Of a stretch of 47,694 nt of DNA, positions 1,743 through 47,694 are shown in pieces (the stretch's first letter is position 1; every line of letters begins with the position of its first letter). A program made the translations under genes and the position numbers. The notes under the pieces were generated by a model. It made no database searches. It was not told the DNA's origin and saw nothing but the letters and a program-made list of their open reading frames with translations. The stretch is from a virus. The DNA lies in IMG/VR virus record IMGVR_UViG_3300030618_000030. One strand, written 5' to 3'.

Positions 1743-1950
1743 CCACAGCGGTATGTCGTTAAATCGACTTATTGAGCATCACAGCAAAACGTCGGATGTA
1801 TGGTTAAAACTTGCGAAACGCATAGTCCCGGACACGGTACATCTTGTTGCGCGTAGGGAGCGATATTTCGAGAAAGCCGAATTTCATGCTAGTGCAGTAC
1901 ATCTGCTACAAATGCTTAGGGCCGAATTTAGTTTGCAAAACCGTCAATAG
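1729..1950 (+). CDS. hypothetical protein (73 aa)
   Basis: ATG ORF. Its TAG stop lies inside the conserved CAATAG of promoter P3. Confidence 0.5.
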   Translation: MLDHNHSGMSLNRLIEHHSKTSDVWLKLAKRIVPDTVHLVARRERYFEKAEFHASAVHLLQMLRAEFSLQNRQ

Positions 1951-1961
1951 TGATTTATAGT
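1933..1961 (+). promoter_or_regulatory. sigma70-like promoter P3 (class I spacer motif)
   Basis: TTGCAA(1933-1938), 17-nt spacer AACCGTCAATAGTGatt, TATAGT(1956-1961). Confidence 0.7.
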
Positions 1962-1993
1962 CTGATGCACAAACCCAAACTTTGGATGACAAA

Positions 1994-2701
1994 ATGAAAA
2001 CTTGGATCAGTGACGAAAACGGCAATCGTTGTTCCGTTGAATATTTTGGTAGCGAAGAGGCGGCGAAAGCAGCATTAGCAAGTTTAGTAAACTGCTCGTA
2101 CTGCTCGGACTGCTCGGACTGCTCGTACTGCTCGTACTGCTCGGACTGCTCGCGCTGCTCGTACTGCTCGAACTGCTCGCGCTGCTCGCGCTGCTCGTAC
2201 TGCTCGGACTGCTCGTACTGCTCGGACTGCTCGCGCTGCTCGTACTGCTCGTACTGCTCGGACTGCTCGTACTGCTCGCGCTGCTCGTACTGCTCGAACT
2301 GCTCGTACTGCTCGCGCTGCTCGTACTGCTCGCGCTGCTCGTACTGCTCGGACTGCTCGGACTGCTCGCGCTGCAAAAATAAGCACGTGCCTGTTGTCGA
2401 TTCGAAAGTACCAACCGTGCCGATAATTCCCGACATCCATAAGCGCATTTATGAACGTGTGTCGCAACCCAGTGCACTCGACATGGGCACTTGGCATACT
2501 TGCGAAACGACGCATTGTCGGGCCGGATGGGTTGTACATGAGGCAGGCGAAGCGGGCTATGCACTTGAGAAGTTTTTCAATACGGAACTGGCGGCAATGC
2601 TGATATATCGTGAAAGCGGCTATCAGATTAACCCGGCGCGGTTCTTTGATGGCGCCGACGAAGCAATGGCCGATATGAAAGCATTGGCCGACGTCCAGTA
2701 A
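1994..2701 (+). CDS. Cys-Ser-X tripeptide-repeat protein (235 aa): 33-aa N-terminal segment, (C-S-[YDRN])x31, about 110-aa C-terminal domain
   Basis: ATG at 1994 (track start 1982 is TTG). Bracketed by promoter P3 and terminator 2729-2756, and co-oriented with all neighbours. The C-terminal part is non-repetitive (…GTWHTCETTHCRAGWVVHEAG…). Confidence 0.75.
   Translation: MKTWISDENGNRCSVEYFGSEEAAKAALASLVNCSYCSDCSDCSYCSYCSDCSRCSYCSNCSRCSRCSYCSDCSYCSDCSRCSYCSYCSDCSYCSRCSYCSNCSYCSRCSYCSRCSYCSDCSDCSRCKNKHVPVVDSKVPTVPIIPDIHKRIYERVSQPSALDMGTWHTCETTHCRAGWVVHEAGEAGYALEKFFNTELAAMLIYRESGYQINPARFFDGADEAMADMKALADVQ
2093..2374 (+). repeat. 31 in-phase tandem copies of the 9-bp unit TGCTCGNNC, plus a final TGC
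   Basis: Counted by hand. The variable dinucleotide is TA x13, GA x8, CG x8, AA x2, and every other base is invariant. Confidence 0.95.
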
Positions 2702-2728
2702 GCCCACAACACCCCGCGTAGTACCATA

Positions 2729-2756
2729 AGGCCAGATTCCACATCTGGCCTTTTTC
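2729..2756 (+). terminator. intrinsic terminator abutting the TerL start codon
   Basis: aggccagat-tccac-atctggcct hairpin followed by TTTTT. The TerL ATG follows at 2757. Confidence 0.7.
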
Positions 2757-4376
2757 ATGCCCTACCCGTACGAACACGACTTTAAAAACCCCGATTACCC
2801 GCGTGTATTTCAGTGGCGCATCGATAAGTTGACCGCTATCCGCGCCGATCCGCAGTTAGCGGCGATGCTGCGCACGCACTACGCGGCGAACCCTATCGAC
2901 TTTATCGAAGACTGGGGAACTACGTTCGACCCACGTAACGTCGGTACGTCACAGCCAGCATTGCTACCGTTAATACTGTTCCCGCGGCAACGCGAGTTTC
3001 TTCAATGGGTGCTTGATCGGTGGAAAGCCGAAGAGTTCGCGCTATCGGACAAATCGCGAGATATGGGCCTATCTTGGATGATGGTGTCATTGTTTAGCGC
3101 ACTGGCGTTATTCAACGACGGTTTCACGGCCGGCTTCGGATCGCGTAAGGAAATCCTAGTTGATCGAGCGGGCGACCCGGATTGTCTGTTTTTCAAAATA
3201 CGCATGTTCTTATCGAATGTGCCCAAGGAATTCCGCGGCGATTGGAAAGTTGGCGGACGTGATTGCGATAAGCATATGTTGATCACCATTCCGCAAACAG
3301 GCGCAATTATCCGCGGCGAGGCGGGCGACAATATTGGTCGCGGTGGGCGCGCATCAATGTACTGTCGTGACGAAGCGGCATTTATCGAACGGCCGCATTT
3401 GAGCGACGCGGCACTATCGCAAAACACGCGCTGTTTGATCGATATCAGTTCGGTCAATGGTCTAGATAACCCATTTGCCGACAAGCGGCACTCGTGGCCC
3501 GCACATCGCGTATTTACGTTCTCGTGGCGCGACGACCCGCGCAAGGATGAAATTTGGTACGCGAAGCAAAAAGAGAATTTGAATCCAATCATCGTTGCAC
3601 AGGAAATTGACCTTGATTACAGCGCGTCTAAGTCTGGTGTGGTCATACCGTCCGCATGGGTCCAATCGGCCATTGGCGCCGCCCGTAAGCTCGGTATTAC
3701 CGTCACTGGTGCTAAAAAGTCCGCGCTCGATGTGGCCGACGAAGGTGTTGATTTGAATTCGTGGGGCGGTCGATACGGCATCGAGTTGCGTCACGTTGAT
3801 TCGTGGTCAGGCCAGGGTAAAACGATTTTTTGGACCACGGAGCAAACGTTTCTACGTTGCGACCAGTTCGGTTATGACAATTGCAAATACGATTCGGACG
3901 GTCTAGGCGTCGGCGTACGTGGTGACGCGGCCCAAATTAACAGCCGACCCGACCGTACCAATGCACAGCGTAAATTCGAGCCTTATAGGGGTTCCGGCGC
4001 CGTAGTGAACAAAGATAAACTCGTGATACGTGGTGATGACCGCGGCGTGGGGGCGCGCAAGAATGAGGATTTCTTTAAGAACCTCAAAGCGCAAGCGTGG
4101 TGGTCATTACGCGACCGATTCGAGCGTACGCATCGGGCCGTGGAAGACGGTGCCATATTCGACCCGGAAACGCTTATCAGCATTAGTGAAGACATACCGG
4201 GTGCGCAACGCAACAGGATTGCCGCGCAATTGTCGCAAGCGACGTACGACATTAACGATGCGGGCAAGATGATTATCGACAAGACCCCGGACGGTCAACG
4301 CTCACCAAACGACGCCGACATGATAGTGATCCTATACGCGCCGGAAGAAAAGAAATCATCGCTGTTTTCCCGTTGA
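2757..4376 (+). CDS. terL: terminase large subunit
   Basis: 539 aa. Has a KSRDMGLS-type ATPase loop typical of Terminase_6-like TerL, with acidic nuclease-half motifs. It lies upstream of the portal gene. Confidence 0.88.
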   Translation: MPYPYEHDFKNPDYPRVFQWRIDKLTAIRADPQLAAMLRTHYAANPIDFIEDWGTTFDPRNVGTSQPALLPLILFPRQREFLQWVLDRWKAEEFALSDKSRDMGLSWMMVSLFSALALFNDGFTAGFGSRKEILVDRAGDPDCLFFKIRMFLSNVPKEFRGDWKVGGRDCDKHMLITIPQTGAIIRGEAGDNIGRGGRASMYCRDEAAFIERPHLSDAALSQNTRCLIDISSVNGLDNPFADKRHSWPAHRVFTFSWRDDPRKDEIWYAKQKENLNPIIVAQEIDLDYSASKSGVVIPSAWVQSAIGAARKLGITVTGAKKSALDVADEGVDLNSWGGRYGIELRHVDSWSGQGKTIFWTTEQTFLRCDQFGYDNCKYDSDGLGVGVRGDAAQINSRPDRTNAQRKFEPYRGSGAVVNKDKLVIRGDDRGVGARKNEDFFKNLKAQAWWSLRDRFERTHRAVEDGAIFDPETLISISEDIPGAQRNRIAAQLSQATYDINDAGKMIIDKTPDGQRSPNDADMIVILYAPEEKKSSLFSR

Positions 4377-7942: not shown

Positions 7943-9595
7943 ATGATTGATTCCGCGGGCGTTATGTTTTTGTGTAATGGCAAGGTGTTGCTATTGCAAC
8001 GGCCAAACGGCGAATGGGGTTTTCCGGCCGGCAGCATTGAAGACGGCGAGACGCCCGAAGCATGCGCACGACGCGAAACGATGGAAGAAACTGGGTACGC
8101 GCATCAAGGCGACATGGCGCAACACGGTACGTACGACAATTTCTGTTTGTATTCGGCAAGCGTTGATCAATTTAACCCGGTGTTGAACGACGAGCATATC
8201 GGGCACGGTTGGTTCGGATTTATGGAATTGCCGCAAGCGCTATTTGCGGCAACCGGAACCGTGCTTAACGATGTGTTTGCGATGGATGCTCAAGAGTCAA
8301 TGCGTCAATACGACATTAACGGTTGGTTCGAAGTACCGGACAATCCATTGTCGAAAGTCGGCGTTTTTAATTATCTCGGTAAAAATATTCCGCAAGAAGT
8401 CGCTAAGGGCAATAGCGATGCAATGTTTGCTGTTTATCGACCTGCCGAAGAATTAGCGGACCCCGCGTGCGTTAAATCGTTCCGCCTCGTTCCCTGGGTA
8501 ATTCAGCACGCGATGTTAGGCGATGGAACGGCCGGGACGCTCACGGTTGATGAGAAGGTAGCCCGCGGCGTGACAGGCGAACAGATATGGTTTGATCCTG
8601 CTGACGACTTCGGAACGCTTAAAGGAAATATCAAATGTTTTAGCGAAATTCTCGCCGGTAATATTGCTGGCGGAAAAACGCCGCTGTCACTTGGGTATCG
8701 GTGCGTATATCAGTACGCACCAGGGACGTTTAACGGCATCCCTTATACTTATGTGCAGCGGCGCATACGTGGCAACCATCTTGCAAGCGTTGACGACGCA
8801 CGCATGGGGCCGGAAGTCGCCGTAATGGACGGCTTTTCATTTACTGTTGATGCAAAGGAGTTTGTCACTATGGCAACGAAGAAAATTGTAAAAAAGGCAG
8901 GCACCGCAGTTGCAGTGTTTCGCCAACGGTTGCAAGCATTCGCAACCGACGCCGCCGAAGCAATTAAGGACGGCGAAGACAAAGACGGCGAATTGAAACA
9001 AGCCGTTGAAGCAATCAGTAACGCCGTCCCGTTGCTTGAAGCAATCGAAGATTTGAAATCGGTTGGCGAAAGTGAAGACTTGGGCACGGTTGCGGGTGAC
9101 ACGATGCAGTCGCCGGGCGACGAACGTACGAAGGGTGCGAACGGGCTTGATGCCGAAGAAACGCCGGAAGAAAAGGAAAAGCGCGAGAAAGCAGAGAAGG
9201 AATCCAAAGCCGGTAAAGGCGAGGATGGTAAAGGTATGGACGCCGCCGAAGTGGGCAAGATGATCCAAAAAGCCGTTGCCGAAGCGCTCGCCGGCCGCGG
9301 CATGGACGCAAGCGAAGTCGTGCAAACGATTGCCAGCCGCGACAAACTCGCGTCGGACGTATCGGAATTTGTCGGCACGTTCGACCATTCCGAAATGACC
9401 GCGCAAGACGTAGCAGTCTATGCCGTCGACAAGCTCAAAATTCCGGCCGCAAAGGGTTCGGAAATCGGCGCCGTCAAAGCGTGGTTGCATGATCGCCCGT
9501 CGCCGCGTAAGCTGCCGACCGCATTTGCGGGCGATGCAAAAGACCGGTCCAACAAACCGTCGTTCGTATCGGCGCAAGTGGCCGAACGCTCGTAA
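7943..9595 (+). CDS. Nudix hydrolase domain fused to a DUF2213-like scaffold/prohead-protease-like protein (550 aa)
   Basis: Complete Nudix box G30-x5-E-x7-RE-T-M-EE-T-G-Y (nt 8030-8098). It is followed by ...YDINGWFEVPDNPLSKVGVFNYLG... and an acidic/Lys-rich, coiled, scaffold-like C-terminus. Confidence 0.75.
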   Translation: MIDSAGVMFLCNGKVLLLQRPNGEWGFPAGSIEDGETPEACARRETMEETGYAHQGDMAQHGTYDNFCLYSASVDQFNPVLNDEHIGHGWFGFMELPQALFAATGTVLNDVFAMDAQESMRQYDINGWFEVPDNPLSKVGVFNYLGKNIPQEVAKGNSDAMFAVYRPAEELADPACVKSFRLVPWVIQHAMLGDGTAGTLTVDEKVARGVTGEQIWFDPADDFGTLKGNIKCFSEILAGNIAGGKTPLSLGYRCVYQYAPGTFNGIPYTYVQRRIRGNHLASVDDARMGPEVAVMDGFSFTVDAKEFVTMATKKIVKKAGTAVAVFRQRLQAFATDAAEAIKDGEDKDGELKQAVEAISNAVPLLEAIEDLKSVGESEDLGTVAGDTMQSPGDERTKGANGLDAEETPEEKEKREKAEKESKAGKGEDGKGMDAAEVGKMIQKAVAEALAGRGMDASEVVQTIASRDKLASDVSEFVGTFDHSEMTAQDVAVYAVDKLKIPAAKGSEIGAVKAWLHDRPSPRKLPTAFAGDAKDRSNKPSFVSAQVAERS

Positions 9596-24915: not shown

Positions 24916-26028
24916 ATGGCATCAAATACCGATTACACAAAGTTCAAAAATGCCCCGCTGTACGCACAGAATTCGGGTGTTGTCGCCGCATGCAAAACCA
25001 CTAATTGGTGGTGGGCCGGTGAAATTGACGACGAGCCTGTTTTGCCCTTGACGCAGGGAGTAGAGCAGTGCTTCACGCTATGGCGGAAACCGCAGGCTAT
25101 TACCAAAGTCGTGCAATACGCGACTGGGAAAACTTTCGTAGAGGGCATTGACTACTCACTGCATGCAGACGGAAAGTTAATTATTCCAGCCGGCAGCGCT
25201 ATCGTATCGGCACCGGCTGGATTCCTCACCACGCCTGACCCGTCAAGTCCCTACTTGTCGCAAAGCCTGACAAAAGAAAACACGCCGCTCTACCTGGGCA
25301 GCAATTACACAAACTACCAAATTGCGGTTAGTTATACGACTGCCTCGGTTACGCCGCCTGAAGCAAATCCATTGCCCCGACTGTCGCAAGCGTTAGGCTT
25401 GAAAACGCCTTACGCAATTACGTTTTACGGCGATAGCATTACGCTCGGTGGTCAGTGTAGCTCTAACGACAACCAAGCGCCGCAACTTCCCGATTATGCG
25501 GATATGTTCGGCGCGTACCTGTCGAGCGTAGCAGCCGGTACGATCTATTGGCGCAATCTGTCGGTATTCGGCATTGCTACAAATACCGCATTAGCTGATG
25601 TGGGAAATATTCTTGATACGGCGTCCGATATGGTTGTACTGGCGTTCGGTATGAACGACTCAAGTAGTGCCGGCCGTCTGACCAAGCAGCAATTCAAGGC
25701 GAACTTGATCGGGATGATAGAGACGATACGTCAAACCAATGGTAACGTTGAAATCGTTCTCGTGTCGGGAGTTACCAGTAATCCCGATTGGATCGAAAAC
25801 AATCCGTTGTTTCATGGCTATCGTGACGTTATGCATGAAATCGTTGGGCAATATGTCGGCACCACGGCTATATGCGTGGTTGACGTTACGGCCGTGTGGG
25901 AAGACGTGCTAAAAAGCAAATCGTATTACGACGTGACTGCCAGCGGAGTGAATCACCCCGGCGACTTCGGGCACAAACTCTATGTTCAAACAATGATCCA
26001 AGCGCTTTGCGGTAGCGAGCCGACCTAA
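24916..26028 (+). CDS. tail-associated SGNH/GDSL hydrolase (putative polysaccharide esterase)
   Basis: All three blocks can be read: FYGDSITLGG (block I), LAFGMNDS (block III), VNHPGDFGH (block V, DxxH). The N-terminal ~150 aa are unrelated. Confidence 0.75.
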   Translation: MASNTDYTKFKNAPLYAQNSGVVAACKTTNWWWAGEIDDEPVLPLTQGVEQCFTLWRKPQAITKVVQYATGKTFVEGIDYSLHADGKLIIPAGSAIVSAPAGFLTTPDPSSPYLSQSLTKENTPLYLGSNYTNYQIAVSYTTASVTPPEANPLPRLSQALGLKTPYAITFYGDSITLGGQCSSNDNQAPQLPDYADMFGAYLSSVAAGTIYWRNLSVFGIATNTALADVGNILDTASDMVVLAFGMNDSSSAGRLTKQQFKANLIGMIETIRQTNGNVEIVLVSGVTSNPDWIENNPLFHGYRDVMHEIVGQYVGTTAICVVDVTAVWEDVLKSKSYYDVTASGVNHPGDFGHKLYVQTMIQALCGSEPT

Positions 26029-26336: not shown

Positions 26337-26724
26337 TTCAATACTTGAAGACGTATTAGCCGGCTTGCTTGCTGTCGCCGTATTGGGCGCGGCTGGCTCG
26401 TTGTGGTACGCGGATCACGAGCACGCGAAGTTGGCGCCGCTGCAACTTAAAATGCAGTCGGCGCAAAATGCAGCAAACCAAGCCGCGGCTGATCGTGATA
26501 CAGCGCTCAAAGCCGCGGCCGACGCACAGAGTCAGCTTGTGATTGCTGAAACTGCCCTAGGCACCGCACAAGCAACTGCAACAGCCGCAGCAAGCGACGC
26601 AACCGCAGCACATGCCAAACTAGCGCAGGTTGCAAAGTTGCCCGGCGTCGTGCAAACGCTCGATGTGCAACTGCCCAAAGAAGTTTGGGACGCGATTTAT
26701 AACGCTACTGGGGCGCAACAATGA
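26329..26724 (+). CDS. i-spanin (Rz-like)
   Basis: In-frame ATG at 26329. N-terminal TMD (ILEDVLAGLLAVAVLGAAGSLWY) followed by an Ala/Gln-rich coiled coil. Confidence 0.65.
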   Translation: MFSSILEDVLAGLLAVAVLGAAGSLWYADHEHAKLAPLQLKMQSAQNAANQAAADRDTALKAAADAQSQLVIAETALGTAQATATAAASDATAAHAKLAQVAKLPGVVQTLDVQLPKEVWDAIYNATGAQQ

Positions 26725-40291: not shown

Positions 40292-40318
40292 TCACACACT
40301 GTCACACACTGTCACACA
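40292..40318 (+). repeat. 10-bp tandem direct repeat TCACACACTG x2.7, directly upstream of the RHH-like ORF
   Basis: 40292-40301 equals 40302-40311, and 40312-40318 is a partial copy. Related GACACAC motifs occur at 40184, 40199 (inverted) and 40233. Confidence 0.85.
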
Positions 40319-43290: not shown

Positions 43291-44100
43291 ATGAGTACGG
43301 ATAATTTAACGCCAAAGCAACAAGCGTTTATTTTGGCTCGTGTAGAACTTGGGAACGATACGGAAGCATATAAGCGTGCGTATGACTGCGCACGTATGAA
43401 AGAAACAACGATATCTAGGAATGCGCATGCGTTAGTGCGGTTGCCAAAAGTGGCAGCTAAATTGCAGCAAATCGAAGAACGATCCGAACGCGCCGCCATC
43501 CTAGACCGTGCCGGCGTGATCAATTTAATTACCGAAATTGCAACGGCCGACGCGACCGCATTTAGCGAATTGCAGATACGGAACTGCCGGCACTGTTGGG
43601 GCGTGGGACATCGGTTCCAATGGGCCAATGAAACGGAGTTCGCCTTTCGGTGCGCCGAAGTGATGGACCGCAACGCAAAGGCGGTCCGTAAGTGGCAGGC
43701 GGGCAAATGCAAGCCCCGCGACGAACCCGTTCCGGAAGAGTTGCCGACTGATGAGGGTGGCTATGGGTTCGTCGTCACACACGAGCCGAACGCCGAATGC
43801 CCCTCATGTCTAGGTGAAGGGTTAGAGGTCGTACGGTTCAAAGACACACGCAAACTCAAAGGCGCGTCGAAACGTTTGTTTGCCGGTATCAAGACCGGCC
43901 CGCGTGGCATCGAGATAAAGACGCGTAGTCAGGAACATGCGCTAGGCTTGCTTGCCAAGATTCACGGTATTGACAATGATCCGCCACCGGCCGCACCAGG
44001 GGGCACCACGTTTAACAACTACGGGCAGGCTGTTGTTATGATTCCAACTGATCCGCTCGAAGCAGCGCGGGCCTATCAAGAATTAATGAAGGGGGGTTAG
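43291..44100 (+). CDS. terS: terminase small subunit (Terminase_2-like N-terminus) with CxxC...CxxC insert
   Basis: The N-terminus LTPKQQAFILARVELGNDTEAYKRAY...AHALVRLPKVAAKLQQIEERSE is typical of TerS. It is followed by CRHCWG...CPSCLG. Confidence 0.75.
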   Translation: MSTDNLTPKQQAFILARVELGNDTEAYKRAYDCARMKETTISRNAHALVRLPKVAAKLQQIEERSERAAILDRAGVINLITEIATADATAFSELQIRNCRHCWGVGHRFQWANETEFAFRCAEVMDRNAKAVRKWQAGKCKPRDEPVPEELPTDEGGYGFVVTHEPNAECPSCLGEGLEVVRFKDTRKLKGASKRLFAGIKTGPRGIEIKTRSQEHALGLLAKIHGIDNDPPPAAPGGTTFNNYGQAVVMIPTDPLEAARAYQELMKGG

Positions 44101-44578: not shown

Positions 44579-44612
44579 TGCCCCGGTGCAATTACTGACC
44601 GGGGCATTTTTT
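44579..44612. terminator. intrinsic terminator between convergent genes
   Basis: tgccccggt-(10 nt)-accggggca followed by TTTTTT. Confidence 0.8.
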
Positions 44613-45195
44613 ATGCAACAACCGTTTCGCCTTGTTCGGCTGTGACGTCTTCCGGTTGTGCCGCGGGCGGTCGCTCGAACAACTCGTGAGCCATTGTCAT
44701 CAACTGTGTTGCAAGCTCGATCAGTTCCTCACGCGTCGCACTTGGCGGAATGACCAAGTGCAAATGCTGCGTACCGATCTTGCGGCCGGGCGTCACTTTG
44801 CGAGGAGGTCGAATCTTGTCGCATGCTAGCAATACCTCATTGACCGAATTGAGCTTTAGCGCCTTGATATGCGGCCGGAACGCGTCGACCAACTCACGTT
44901 TGGTCAATCCCTGCGCCCATTCATTTATGTCATCCGTACCAACGAAGTCAAACAGCGCACTGGCGGCACTAATGCGCCGATTTATGGACTTCCAATCCAT
45001 ATCGCCCGGCTTGGCGCACTTACTGCCGGCCGCACCGTAAATCGTCAATAGCGTTTCGCGGGCCAAACGCTTCATGTTGTCGCATTCGAGAATGACGGCA
45101 AAACCAACGGCCAGTTCGATTTCAAGCGCGGTTGATCGTGACAACGCTGCTTCAACGATTGCGTTGCTGTATGCCTTAAGGTGCGTCTTATTCAT
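44611..45195 (-). CDS. hypothetical protein (194 aa), the sole leftward gene of this region and a candidate regulator by position only
   Basis: The in-frame ATG at 45195 (MNKTHLKAY...) has GGAG 8 nt upstream and lies downstream of promoter P9. The track start at 45288 lies upstream of that promoter. Confidence 0.65.
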   Translation of the reverse strand: MNKTHLKAYSNAIVEAALSRSTALEIELAVGFAVILECDNMKRLARETLLTIYGAAGSKCAKPGDMDWKSINRRISAASALFDFVGTDDINEWAQGLTKRELVDAFRPHIKALKLNSVNEVLLACDKIRPPRKVTPGRKIGTQHLHLVIPPSATREELIELATQLMTMAHELFERPPAAQPEDVTAEQGETVVA

Positions 45196-45213
45196 GGTGT
45201 AGACTCCTAGTTG

Positions 45214-45243
45214 TTGACAGACCGGACAAGTTGCCGGTAAATT
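45214..45243 (+). promoter_or_regulatory. candidate rightward promoter P10
   Basis: TTGACA(45214-45219), 18-nt spacer, TAAATT(45238-45243). The predicted start lies just before the palindrome at 45253-45267. Confidence 0.45.
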
Positions 45244-45244
45244 C

Positions 45245-45273
45245 AATGTAGAACCGTTATTAACGGTTTGCAA
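45245..45273 (-). promoter_or_regulatory. promoter P9 (class II, perfect palindromic operator in the spacer), minus strand
   Basis: Reverse complement reads TTGCAA, spacer ACCGTTAATAACGGTTC, TACATT. The palindrome at 45253-45267 is perfect. Confidence 0.6.
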
Positions 45274-45311
45274 GTTATTTATTAACATCTTATGTAAGGA
45301 AACGTACAGAC

Positions 45312-47282: not shown

Positions 47283-47620
47283 TCGATTACGAAGAGTTCA
47301 AAGAGCAACGCGACGACTTGCGCCGACAGTTGCGCGAATGGATCGCGGCGAAGTCCCTGGATAGGTCGGATCGTGGTGCGGCTGTACGGGCAGCACATCG
47401 TAAATATTTATTGGCACGTCAGGCAATTAACGGACGTGCCGGACAAGCACGGGATACTTGGCAAAGTTGTTACTCTGTGGAACGTTATGGGCAAGCGTCA
47501 GAGCAACGCCGGATTCGATATTTAACAAAAGCTCAGTTACCTGGATTAATTACAGCATTGACAAGCCCGCGCAAGATTGATCAGTTGATAGGCAACGGAG
47601 GTTGGGATGAAACTCGATGA
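47279..47620 (+). CDS. hypothetical early protein (113 aa); its 3' end lies in the terminal repeat
   Basis: ATGA overlap with the upstream stop. The last 53 nt are duplicated at 1-53. Confidence 0.6.
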   Translation: MIDYEEFKEQRDDLRRQLREWIAAKSLDRSDRGAAVRAAHRKYLLARQAINGRAGQARDTWQSCYSVERYGQASEQRRIRYLTKAQLPGLITALTSPRKIDQLIGNGGWDETR

Positions 47621-47694
47621 ATTGATCCGTTATGACGTAGCACCCGGCACGCTTAGCGAACCGACGCCTAACGGTGCATTCGTCGCGTATGCGC
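47568..47694. repeat. Terminal direct repeat copy 2 (identical to 1-127)
   Basis: Read directly, 127/127 identity. Confidence 0.95.

Follow-up and report, generated by a model that had tools for sequence, protein, structure and literature searches.

A length-variable Cys-Ser-X repeat array interchanged with pentapeptide repeats in a large family of phage and prophage proteins

The virus record IMGVR_UViG_3300030618_000030, a DNA stretch of 47,694 nucleotides referred to throughout as the window, carries on its + strand a gene (1994..2701) for a protein of 235 amino acids, the middle of which is a tandem array of the tripeptide Cys-Ser-X. The gene is read in the Cys-Ser-X frame and has a large family of relatives in phages and prophages. 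Its array differs in copy number between identical flanks, pentapeptide and other repeats take the place of the array in related proteins, and several relatives lie beside anti-restriction or recombination genes. The explanation favoured here, for which the chances are about even, is that the array forms a repeat scaffold of variable length, braced by metal, in an accessory protein for host interaction or anti-defence; the fold, the metal, the timing and the target are what we infer.

The array itself occupies 2093-2371 (279 bp) and consists of 31.0 in-phase units of TGCTCGNNC. All 31 of the 31 units open with TGCTCG, and the third codon is TAC in 13 units, GAC in 8, CGC in 8 and AAC in 2. An extra TGC at 2372-2374 brings the number of cysteines to 32, at a constant spacing of 3 residues. 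The unit number, the third-codon counts, the 32 cysteines and the invariant Cys and Ser codons had all been proposed in an earlier sequence-only reading of the window, and they proved exact on recount. Tandem Repeats Finder reports a single array (2091-2368, period 9, 30.9 copies, score 388), and over the whole window it finds no second large tandem array and no second copy of the Cys-Ser-X repeat. Two other short tandem repeats are present, at 26564-26612 (period 21, 2.3 copies) and at 40292-40318 (period 10, 2.7 copies).

The open reading frame (ORF) runs from an ATG at 1994 to a stop ending at 2701 and encodes a product of 26.2 kDa. An alternative TTG start at 1982 would give 239 amino acids; the ATG is favoured since the homologues begin with M-x-x-T-W-I-x-D. 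A Shine-Dalgarno-like GGATGA, as read from the sequence, is placed 4 nt 5' of this ATG (1984..1989, +). An N-terminal cap (aa 1-33, 1994..2092), delimited by alignment A1 and by the AlphaFold (AF2) model, is followed by the (Cys-Ser-[Y/D/R/N])31-Cys array of 31 x TGC-TCG-NNC with its terminal TGC (aa 34-127, 2093..2374), which is defined by the repeat count, the frame test and the contig comparison. A linker, KNKHVPVVDSKVP (aa 128-140, 2375..2413), is modelled with a predicted local distance difference test (pLDDT) score of 55-66, and its length and sequence vary among homologues. The remainder is a conserved helical C-terminal domain, called C-domain A (aa 141-235, 2414..2698), supported by PHROG 31265, AF2 and a hidden Markov model (HMM) search. 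Within it, at aa 167-179 (2492..2530), lies the motif W-H-T-C-E-T-T-H-C-R-A-G-W that the earlier reading had placed in the C-terminal part; with its invariant columns in alignments A1, A2 and A3, it is a candidate metal or active site. Of the 94 residues of the array, 32 are Cys and about 33% are Ser; there are 13 Tyr in the 31 units and zero aliphatic residues. No signal peptide is apparent by eye in the 235-aa protein.

C-domain A is 42-48% identical to the C-termini of Ralstonia phage 'putative pentapeptide repeat proteins' (RpY1_018, RSK1 and PQ43W_58), in which it is preceded by a cap and an (A[D/Y]L[S/R]G)n array. These homologues match the Pfam pentapeptide family with E values of 3.8e-27 and 2.3e-55. 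The module encoded in frame upstream of C-domain A was further classified at 80 bacterial genome loci. It is a Cys-Ser-X array, with up to 56-65 Cys, at 32 of the 80 and a pentapeptide array at 35; it is broken off by a contig end at 8 and belongs to other types at 5, including a distinct VLGIASxxTVxR repeat. In an Aquabacterium metagenome-assembled genome (locus L095, upstream of 1501), a regular VLGIAS-xx-TV-x-R repeat precedes C-domain A over more than 300 residues. Among the best 150 of 1,760 C-domain A representatives, 34 carry Cys-Ser-X and at least 39 carry pentapeptide arrays, and further partners are leucine-rich-repeat (LRR)-like repeats (proteins P0356, P0364, P0365 and P0385) and a DUF4116-like repeat (P0371). 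It was also observed that one contig of Xanthomonas sp. NCPPB 1128 (NZ_LFME01000002.1; loci L052 and L053) holds two pentapeptide-type members, with identical upstream arrays, about 37 kb apart.

Similarly, at least three other C-domains occur in fusion with Cys-Ser-X arrays, and two of them follow pentapeptide arrays in cultured phages. C-domain B is common to the Cys-Ser-X protein P0132 and the pentapeptide protein gp51 of Listeria phage B025 (PHROG cross-matches 20532/7964). C-domain C is common to the Cys-Ser-X protein P0137 and the pentapeptide protein ORF19 of Salmonella phage ST104 (PHROG cross-matches 31567/37032), and it also stands behind pentapeptide arrays in Rheinheimera Barba phages. 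In one of these phages, the pentapeptide-array gene Barba22A gp043 (L014, 2068-2700) appears to lose its frame near the array end, before the C-domain, a sign that pentapeptide arrays, too, may be unstable in repeat length or contain sequencing errors. Judged from these comparisons, the Cys-Ser-X array is an exchangeable module in the same architectural place as pentapeptide and LRR-like repeats. Pentapeptide and LRR repeats form rigid solenoid-type scaffolds, and DUF4116 repeats probably do so too. The simplest inference from the swaps is that the Cys-Ser-X array is likely a solenoid-type scaffold as well.

The phage pentapeptide proteins (Ralstonia RpY1_018, RSK1 and PQ43W_58, B025 gp51 and ST104 ORF19) are thus the closest known proteins by homology, and they are annotated only and uncharacterised. 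They share the plan of cap, tandem array and small C-domain with the window protein, along with C-domains A, B and C. Their arrays are likewise built of near-identical DNA units with variable S, R, Y or D, and they are small accessory genes in early or moron-like positions. The repeats themselves differ: theirs is a five-residue A(D/N)LXX unit of Pfam PF00805, whereas that of the window is a three-residue Cys-Ser-X unit without a Pfam match, and the Leu/Phe hydrophobic core of their helix has no counterpart in the Cys-Ser-X array.

The module swap bears directly on the idea of a metallothionein-like sponge, in which the array would sequester Zn, Cu, Cd or Fe or buffer thiol redox, with the flanking domains serving stability or targeting. 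Cys makes up 33% of the array and Ser about 33%, fractions to which the composition of metallothioneins is close, and the CxxC spacing is continuous. The low AF2 confidence over the array would fit a fold that is disordered without metal, and weak composition matches to Zn-finger and Fe-S (iron-sulfur) proteins are found in the PDB. However, the sister proteins carry Cys-free pentapeptide or LRR-like repeats at the same position, which are incapable of acting as thiol sponges. Tyr occurs in 13/31 units, unlike in metallothioneins, and the strict Ser at position 2 together with the conserved cap suggests a defined structure. The window protein shares with metallothioneins and CXXC Zn or Fe-S motifs the Cys content of about one third, the CxxC/CxxCxxC spacing and the expectation of an apo form without a hydrophobic core, but at 26.2 kDa it is much longer than metallothioneins, strictly periodic, Tyr-rich and flanked by conserved domains. 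The sequence-only reading had offered metal or Fe-S binding, a redox sponge and a Cys-ladder solenoid as speculative functions; the interchange with pentapeptide and LRR-like repeats favours a scaffold or solenoid over a simple sponge, which is considered unlikely.

Database searches place the gene in a family of considerable size. Residues 7-129 match phrog_15341 (E 1.7e-17) and residues 141-233 match phrog_31265 (E 6.4e-22), both families of unknown function. The 235-aa protein has no family in Pfam, with no pentapeptide match at E <= 1, and no NCBIfam family above cut-off. HxsA4 (NF038313) is the sole curated NCBIfam model with any signal, at 28.3 bits against a cut-off of 55, and the signal is based on composition and periodicity. 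A profile search of the PDB by sequence gave weak Cys-rich noise only (best E 0.016, Zn-finger and Fe-S proteins), and Megablast of the locus against phage genomes gave no match. In a collection of 5.8 billion proteins, the C-domain has 912 homologous clusters and the cap plus array has 524. At E <= 1e-3, an exhaustive HMM search with the C-domain profile yielded the 1,760 representatives at 50% identity, of which 1,179 reach E <= 1e-10. The family spans 5 to 65 Cys, the arrays of relatives reaching 56-65, so that the 32 Cys of the window are mid-range. Going by sequence relationships, the gene is a member of a very large, uncharacterised phage and prophage family and not a unique architecture. 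The sequence-only reading had not recognised the architecture; indeed no characterised family matches it, but it is shared by many proteins, some with longer arrays. No report specific to phage Cys tripeptide repeats, or to the function of phage pentapeptide proteins with these C-domains, was found in the literature.

Public gene calls at loci of this family are often wrong. In the public contigs of the same phage as the window (L005-L009), and in L016, the 235-aa gene is replaced by a minus-strand ORF that covers the array, together with a C-terminal stub of 72 aa (P0014 in the phage of the window) or 105 aa. Stubs of this sort, or fragments cut off at contig ends, probably account for many of the approximately 100-aa 'homologues' in the protein collection. 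The homologue of Flavobacterium phage FL-1 (KY421186.2; L002, 2515-3331) has a 36-Cys array and a frameshift just inside the C-domain motif, which is either a sequencing error or a mark of a pseudogene. Its annotation consists of separate hypothetical proteins, and one of these reads the array in a different frame.

The choice of frame is settled by comparison. All six frames of the window array are open; across six arrays, however, the +1 (Cys-Ser-X) frame is the only one that is stop-free in all. The minus-strand (Glu-Gln-X)n frame is interrupted by 7 stops in L010, 2 in L002 and 16 in L017. In addition, the array is flanked in frame by the conserved N-cap and C-domain, both of which AF2 folds with confidence. 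The earlier proposal that the + frame is coding is thus borne out. The codons used for the repeat are TGC-TCG-NNC in the window, TGC/TGT-TCC in L010, TGC-TCC in L011 and TGC-TCC-NNT in phage FL-1. Since the codons differ by lineage and Cys-Ser-X is kept, it is the amino-acid pattern that is conserved. The Cys and Ser codons are at the same time near-uniform inside each array, and the arrays must therefore have been homogenised or recently expanded at the DNA level. Such a pattern speaks for protein-level selection with concerted evolution, Cys and Ser being held by selection.

These comparisons also decide against a DNA element, such as a terminase recognition or pac-like site or a recombination hotspot, with an incidental ORF, and against the minus-strand (Glu-Gln-X)n ORF as the real gene. 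The array lies 386 bp upstream of TerL, the six frames of the window array are open, and public annotation chose the minus-strand ORF with the 72-aa stub. Homologous arrays are nevertheless far from terminase genes in other phages, and the DNA units of homologues differ with Cys-Ser-X kept. With stops in the minus frame of homologues and an N-cap and C-domain conserved in frame, either version of the idea is very hard to credit.

In a set of 135 arrays, Ser occupies position 2 in 81% of units. At position 3 the residue is D in 31%, G in 19%, R in 19%, Y in 12% and N in 10% (91% together), and about 97% of position-3 residues belong to the set encoded by N-purine-pyrimidine codons. Like variable residues show a weak excess at lags of 3-4 units.

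The copy number of the repeat varies within a single phage. Five public contigs of the same phage as the window have 43, 31, 14, 31 and at least 13 units, the last (L009) ending inside the array. Around the array, the versions with 43, 14 and 31 units match the window at 100% identity over flanks of 3.6-5.8 kb, and the shared units keep the same order across contigs, with whole-unit indels and no substitutions. The locus had been described as slippage-prone and copy-number-variable at the DNA level; the 14, 31 or 43 units between identical flanks, with lineage-specific uniform codons, agree with that description. The NNC codon resembles that of a diversity-generating retroelement (DGR), and a DGR variable region was therefore considered. 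It was rejected, as no reverse transcriptase was matched in the scanned ORFs, no template repeat was seen and no substitutions separate the contigs.

It may be asked whether the array or its length arose from short-read mis-assembly. The window looks like an assembly of short reads, its two ends overlap by 127 bp, L009 ends inside the array, and array lengths differ between assemblies. Against this, an identical 31-unit array is present in three independent assemblies (the window, L006 and L008), the aperiodic order of the units means that the array can be assembled, and hundreds of homologous arrays are known, including those of isolate genomes and a cultured phage. An artefact is consequently the least probable of all the explanations and can practically be set aside.

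The sequence-only reading had also called for AlphaFold and Foldseek work on the 235-aa product. When this was carried out, no known fold was matched; the cap and the C-domain were resolved and the array was not. The cap has the consensus TW[IL]xDxNGN[RK]CSVEYFGSxEAAxxALxSL, in which D7, N11 and L28 are invariant and W4, S14 and G19 near-invariant (alignment A1). It is modelled with pLDDT 92-96 for aa 1-30 as a beta-hairpin plus helix (strands 4-6 and 12-14, helices 15-18 and 21-29). The C-domain, with the consensus IPxIxxIH...W-H-x-C-x-T-T-H-C-R-x-G-W..., keeps H168, C170, H174 and C175 invariant (alignments A1, A2 and A3). It is modelled as six helices with a block pLDDT of about 89-98, except for the motif loop at aa 161-180 (57-74). 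A small metal site is one possible role of the invariant H/C motif; catalysis or binding is another. In the array, the first eight units by the cap form regular single-residue bridges at every Ser, with pLDDT falling from 92 to 82, and beyond them pLDDT is 38-55. A second AF2 run on P0006, a 10-Cys relative with a 75-sequence alignment at full coverage, again resolved the cap and C-domain, and the array confidence collapsed there too. The right-handed quadrilateral beta-helix that characterises pentapeptide repeat proteins was considered for the array as well, most of which has the pLDDT of 38-55. Foldseek found no match in the PDB in two runs, the array part of the models being of low confidence, and in BFVD it found nothing beyond an FL-1 fragment.

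The low confidence of the array may be read as that of a tunable disordered spacer, a flexible low-complexity linker whose length alone sets the distance from N-cap to C-domain. The pLDDT of 38-55 across the array in two models would agree with this, as would the wide range of lengths, 5-65 Cys in the family and 14-43 units within one phage. A spacer, however, does not account for Cys at every third residue and Ser at position 2 in 81% of units, both kept across phyla with different codons. Pentapeptide and LRR repeats, which occupy this site in other members, are rigid folded solenoids, and AF2 models a regular single-residue bridge at each Ser of the first eight units (pLDDT 82-92). The spacer is accordingly held to be improbable, to the same degree as the thiol sponge.

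The favoured explanation, a metal-braced scaffold, may be put as follows. The protein would be a cytoplasmic accessory protein made of the N-terminal cap, the Cys-Ser-X array and the helical C-terminal domain with its invariant H/C motif. The third residue X, variable and polar (D, G, R, Y or N), would be exposed at the surface. The array, a genuine protein repeat module, lengthens or shortens through in-frame gain or loss of 9-bp units. Most likely, the array is an elongated repeat scaffold that stands in place of a pentapeptide beta-helix or an LRR-like solenoid, and it probably folds around metal-thiolate sites (Zn or Fe-S). Metal-thiolate folding is proposed because the array has no hydrophobic core, is one-third Cys and would be made in a reducing cytoplasm. 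CxxCxxC is a classic spacing for Fe-S and Zn clusters. The models would be expected to show low AF2 confidence for such an array in its apo state, if its fold depends on metal, and the weak PDB sequence matches, all to Zn-finger and Fe-S proteins, are in keeping with the idea. The protein would most likely bind a host or defence factor early in infection, in host takeover or anti-defence. D, G, R, Y and N are residues of a sort found in protein-binding surfaces. A rapidly changeable surface would come from the length of the array and its X residues, and a constant function from the C-domain.

A precedent for tight solenoids braced by Cys exists among insect antifreeze proteins. Their narrow beta-solenoids (TCTxSxxCxxAx in Tenebrio, xxCxGxYCxG in the midge) are secreted and disulfide-bonded and have 10-12-residue units. 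They have in common with the window array the short repeats with regular Cys and Ser/Thr, and they show that core-less solenoids of this sort are possible. They differ in being secreted and disulfide-bonded and in having longer units, and Foldseek against the PDB gave no match with the low-confidence array model.

Cys and Ser in tandem also recall precursors of peptides that are synthesised on ribosomes and modified after translation (RiPPs), in which the array would be heterocyclised to thiazole and oxazole, as in microcin B17 and the heterocycloanthracins, or cross-linked by radical-SAM (S-adenosylmethionine) enzymes, as proposed for His-Xaa-Ser proteins. Strain-variable tandem Cys-Xaa-Xaa repeats, a feature seen in the window array too, define the heterocycloanthracin precursors, which are thiazole/oxazole-modified microcin (TOMM) precursors (TIGR03601; Haft 2009, PMC2674419). 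These are the closest Cys-X-X repeat on record, with whole-unit indels and genes that are often missed or miscalled. They are, however, leader-core peptides of 50-90 aa with a C-terminal array, and they need cyclodehydratase, dehydrogenase and docking genes. In the 235-aa window protein, the array is internal, between folded domains, and is followed by a 108-aa stretch of linker and conserved folded domain, unlike a core that ends a peptide after its leader. Among the roughly 43 window ORFs scanned with Pfam or PHROGs, all large ORFs included, none matched a reverse transcriptase, a YcaO/cyclodehydratase, a dehydrogenase, a docking protein or a radical-SAM enzyme. The gene tables of six other loci likewise show no YcaO/cyclodehydratase, dehydrogenase or radical-SAM gene, although the host could encode such enzymes. 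Membership of the TOMM/heterocycloanthracin group was rejected on this topology and on the lack of matched maturation enzymes.

The HxsA His-Xaa-Ser repeat proteins are similar in their Ser-containing tripeptide tandem repeats and different in having His, not Cys, in the repeat. The HxsA4 match is a sub-threshold hint in the same direction, but it falls far under the cut-off, and no Hxs radical-SAM partner was matched in the window; membership of the HxsA system was rejected on both counts. As the array is also interchangeable with pentapeptide repeats, a RiPP-type precursor is given only a slight chance.

The proposal that the protein binds a host or defence factor early in infection is drawn from the genomic position of its relatives. 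In the P22-like Salmonella phage ST104, ORF19 is part of the early-left operon, between the anti-restriction gene ral and orf78/17/c3/kil/erf/abc1. B025 gp51 of Listeria phage is encoded upstream of Gam-like and Sak4 genes, the pentapeptide relative of Ralstonia phage RpY1 is divergent from a cI-like repressor, and the relative in phage Bakoly is the first gene of the genome. The Cys-Ser-X genes of four metagenomic or prophage loci (L011, L012, L016 and L017) are 1-3 genes from YqaJ, RecT or ERF, and that of L010 is near a weak Acb2/Tad1-hairpin match. The context pattern fits an early, dispensable host-interaction or anti-defence protein.

Several observations weigh against the favoured explanation. 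The window gene itself adjoins TerL and is outside any recognisable early operon, and its promoter match is at the level of chance. PADLOC returned zero matches for the window protein, three Cys-Ser-X relatives and three pentapeptide relatives, and no experimental datum on any family member was found in the literature. AF2 gives no confident fold past the first few units, and on these models the array could be disordered. The excess at lags of 3-4 units hints at a structural period of 9-12 residues, but it could reflect DNA block duplication. The contigs that differ in copy number are short-read metagenome assemblies, one of which (L009) breaks in the array. Lastly, the array is charge-neutral, with 8 D and 8 R, so that simple DNA mimicry of the classic acidic kind is a poor fit. 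Pentapeptide proteins of the Qnr/MfpA type are rod-like, dimerise via C-terminal helices and act as DNA mimics on gyrase (PMC10886550). With Qnr, MfpA, AlbG and McbG, the window protein is connected by analogy through the module swap only, as rod-like repeat proteins that bind DNA-handling enzymes; there is no sequence or detectable fold similarity, and their arrays are acidic where that of the window is neutral.

As regards expression, the gene had been credited with a near-consensus promoter and a strong terminator of its own. The sigma-70-like candidate TTGCAA-17-TATAGT (1933..1961, +) matches 9/12 positions. Such sites occur at chance frequency, with 9 scored in 6 kb against 6.8 expected from shuffled sequence, and the promoter is reduced to a plausible candidate. 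An intrinsic-terminator-like hairpin with a T-run (2728..2756, +; 10-bp stem, 5-nt loop) abuts the TerL ATG at 2757. The hairpin at 2728-2752, followed by TTTTT, has a minimum free energy of -17 and a centroid energy of -15.1 kcal/mol, with z -3.8 against shuffles. The claim of a terminator is thus supported by good folding, but the terminator scan program did not list this hairpin. The hairpin and T-run end directly before the TerL ATG, and no Shine-Dalgarno is visible for TerL; its expression must therefore read through or restart there. Better promoter-like sites (10/12) are found at 297-325 and 662-690, flanking a strong terminator-like hairpin at 631-652 (9-bp stem and T-run), and this pattern at 297-690 suggests that several small upstream genes are separate moron-like units.

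The downstream gene (2757-4376) is TerL, 54% identical to TerL of Burkholderia phage BcepB1A. TerS (Terminase_2, E 4.9e-16) lies at 43291-44100, about 6 kb 5' of TerL on the circular map. The gene had been placed just before the packaging genes, and this holds for TerL but not for the packaging genes as a set. The gap between TerS and TerL comprises about 6.2 kb of small + strand ORFs and one minus-strand ORF of 225 aa (44611-45288), and this block of about 25 small orphan genes ends with the repeat gene, which is outside any packaging unit. No Pfam or PHROGs match was obtained for 15 of the 16 small ORFs scanned: 13 compared with PHROGs gave one match, to a family of unknown function, and three further ones gave none in Pfam or PHROGs. 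Such a split packaging module is unusual and looks like an accessory-gene island. The repeat protein was also considered as a TerS candidate and rejected, since it has no TerS match in Pfam or PHROGs and a Terminase_2 protein is encoded at 43291-44100.

Bases 1-127 are identical to 47568-47694. From these identical ends, which represent the k-mer overlap of an assembler, the window is taken as a complete phage genome of about 47,567 bp, either circular or circularly permuted. The phage is myovirus-like, with an identified portal, Mu-F-like protein, major capsid, DUF3383 protein (which we take to be the tail sheath), tail lysozyme and baseplate hub. Its replication genes encode a DNA polymerase, a helicase, a primase-polymerase-like protein and a DUF2800/PD-(D/E)XK protein. 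A 550-aa head-module protein (7943-9595) combines an N-terminal NUDIX domain with DUF2213, an unusual fusion of a NUDIX hydrolase to a head-assembly-region protein. A 370-aa protein of the tail-fibre region (24916-26028) has a GDSL lipase/acylhydrolase domain and could be a receptor-modifying esterase.

Among the phage accessory proteins that join a repeat scaffold to a C-domain, the Cys-Ser-X repeat is without a described counterpart. A bolder proposal, offered tentatively and with less confidence than the favoured explanation, is that Cys-Ser-X arrays are an undescribed class of tandem repeat. They would form a metal-thiolate cysteine-ladder solenoid or rod, a fast-evolving phage binding scaffold that gains and loses units and can be exchanged for pentapeptide or LRR solenoids, in a family of early accessory effectors with more than 1,700 members that act on host or defence proteins.

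If the favoured explanation is true, a large and phylogenetically broad group of genes in phages and prophages would gain a common description, that of a constant small domain on an exchangeable repeat scaffold; at present these genes are split, miscalled or labelled 'hypothetical'. Gene callers systematically mis-annotate such loci as an antisense ORF and a C-terminal stub. Cys-Ser-X members are present in cultured systems, namely Flavobacterium phage FL-1 and the isolates Rhizorhapis suberifaciens DSM 7465, Kaistia dalseonensis B6-8, Phyllobacterium phragmitis 1N-3 and Dyadobacter sp. CY261 (in the isolates, probably as prophages). Their pentapeptide counterparts are in culture in P22-like Salmonella phages, Listeria phage B025 and Ralstonia phages. 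The Cys-Ser-X array would be a new scaffold type among protein repeats, possibly a metal-braced one, of interest to structural biology and protein design. Finally, with its position beside ral, kil, gam-like and recombination genes, the family would be a candidate source of new host-takeover and anti-defence functions.

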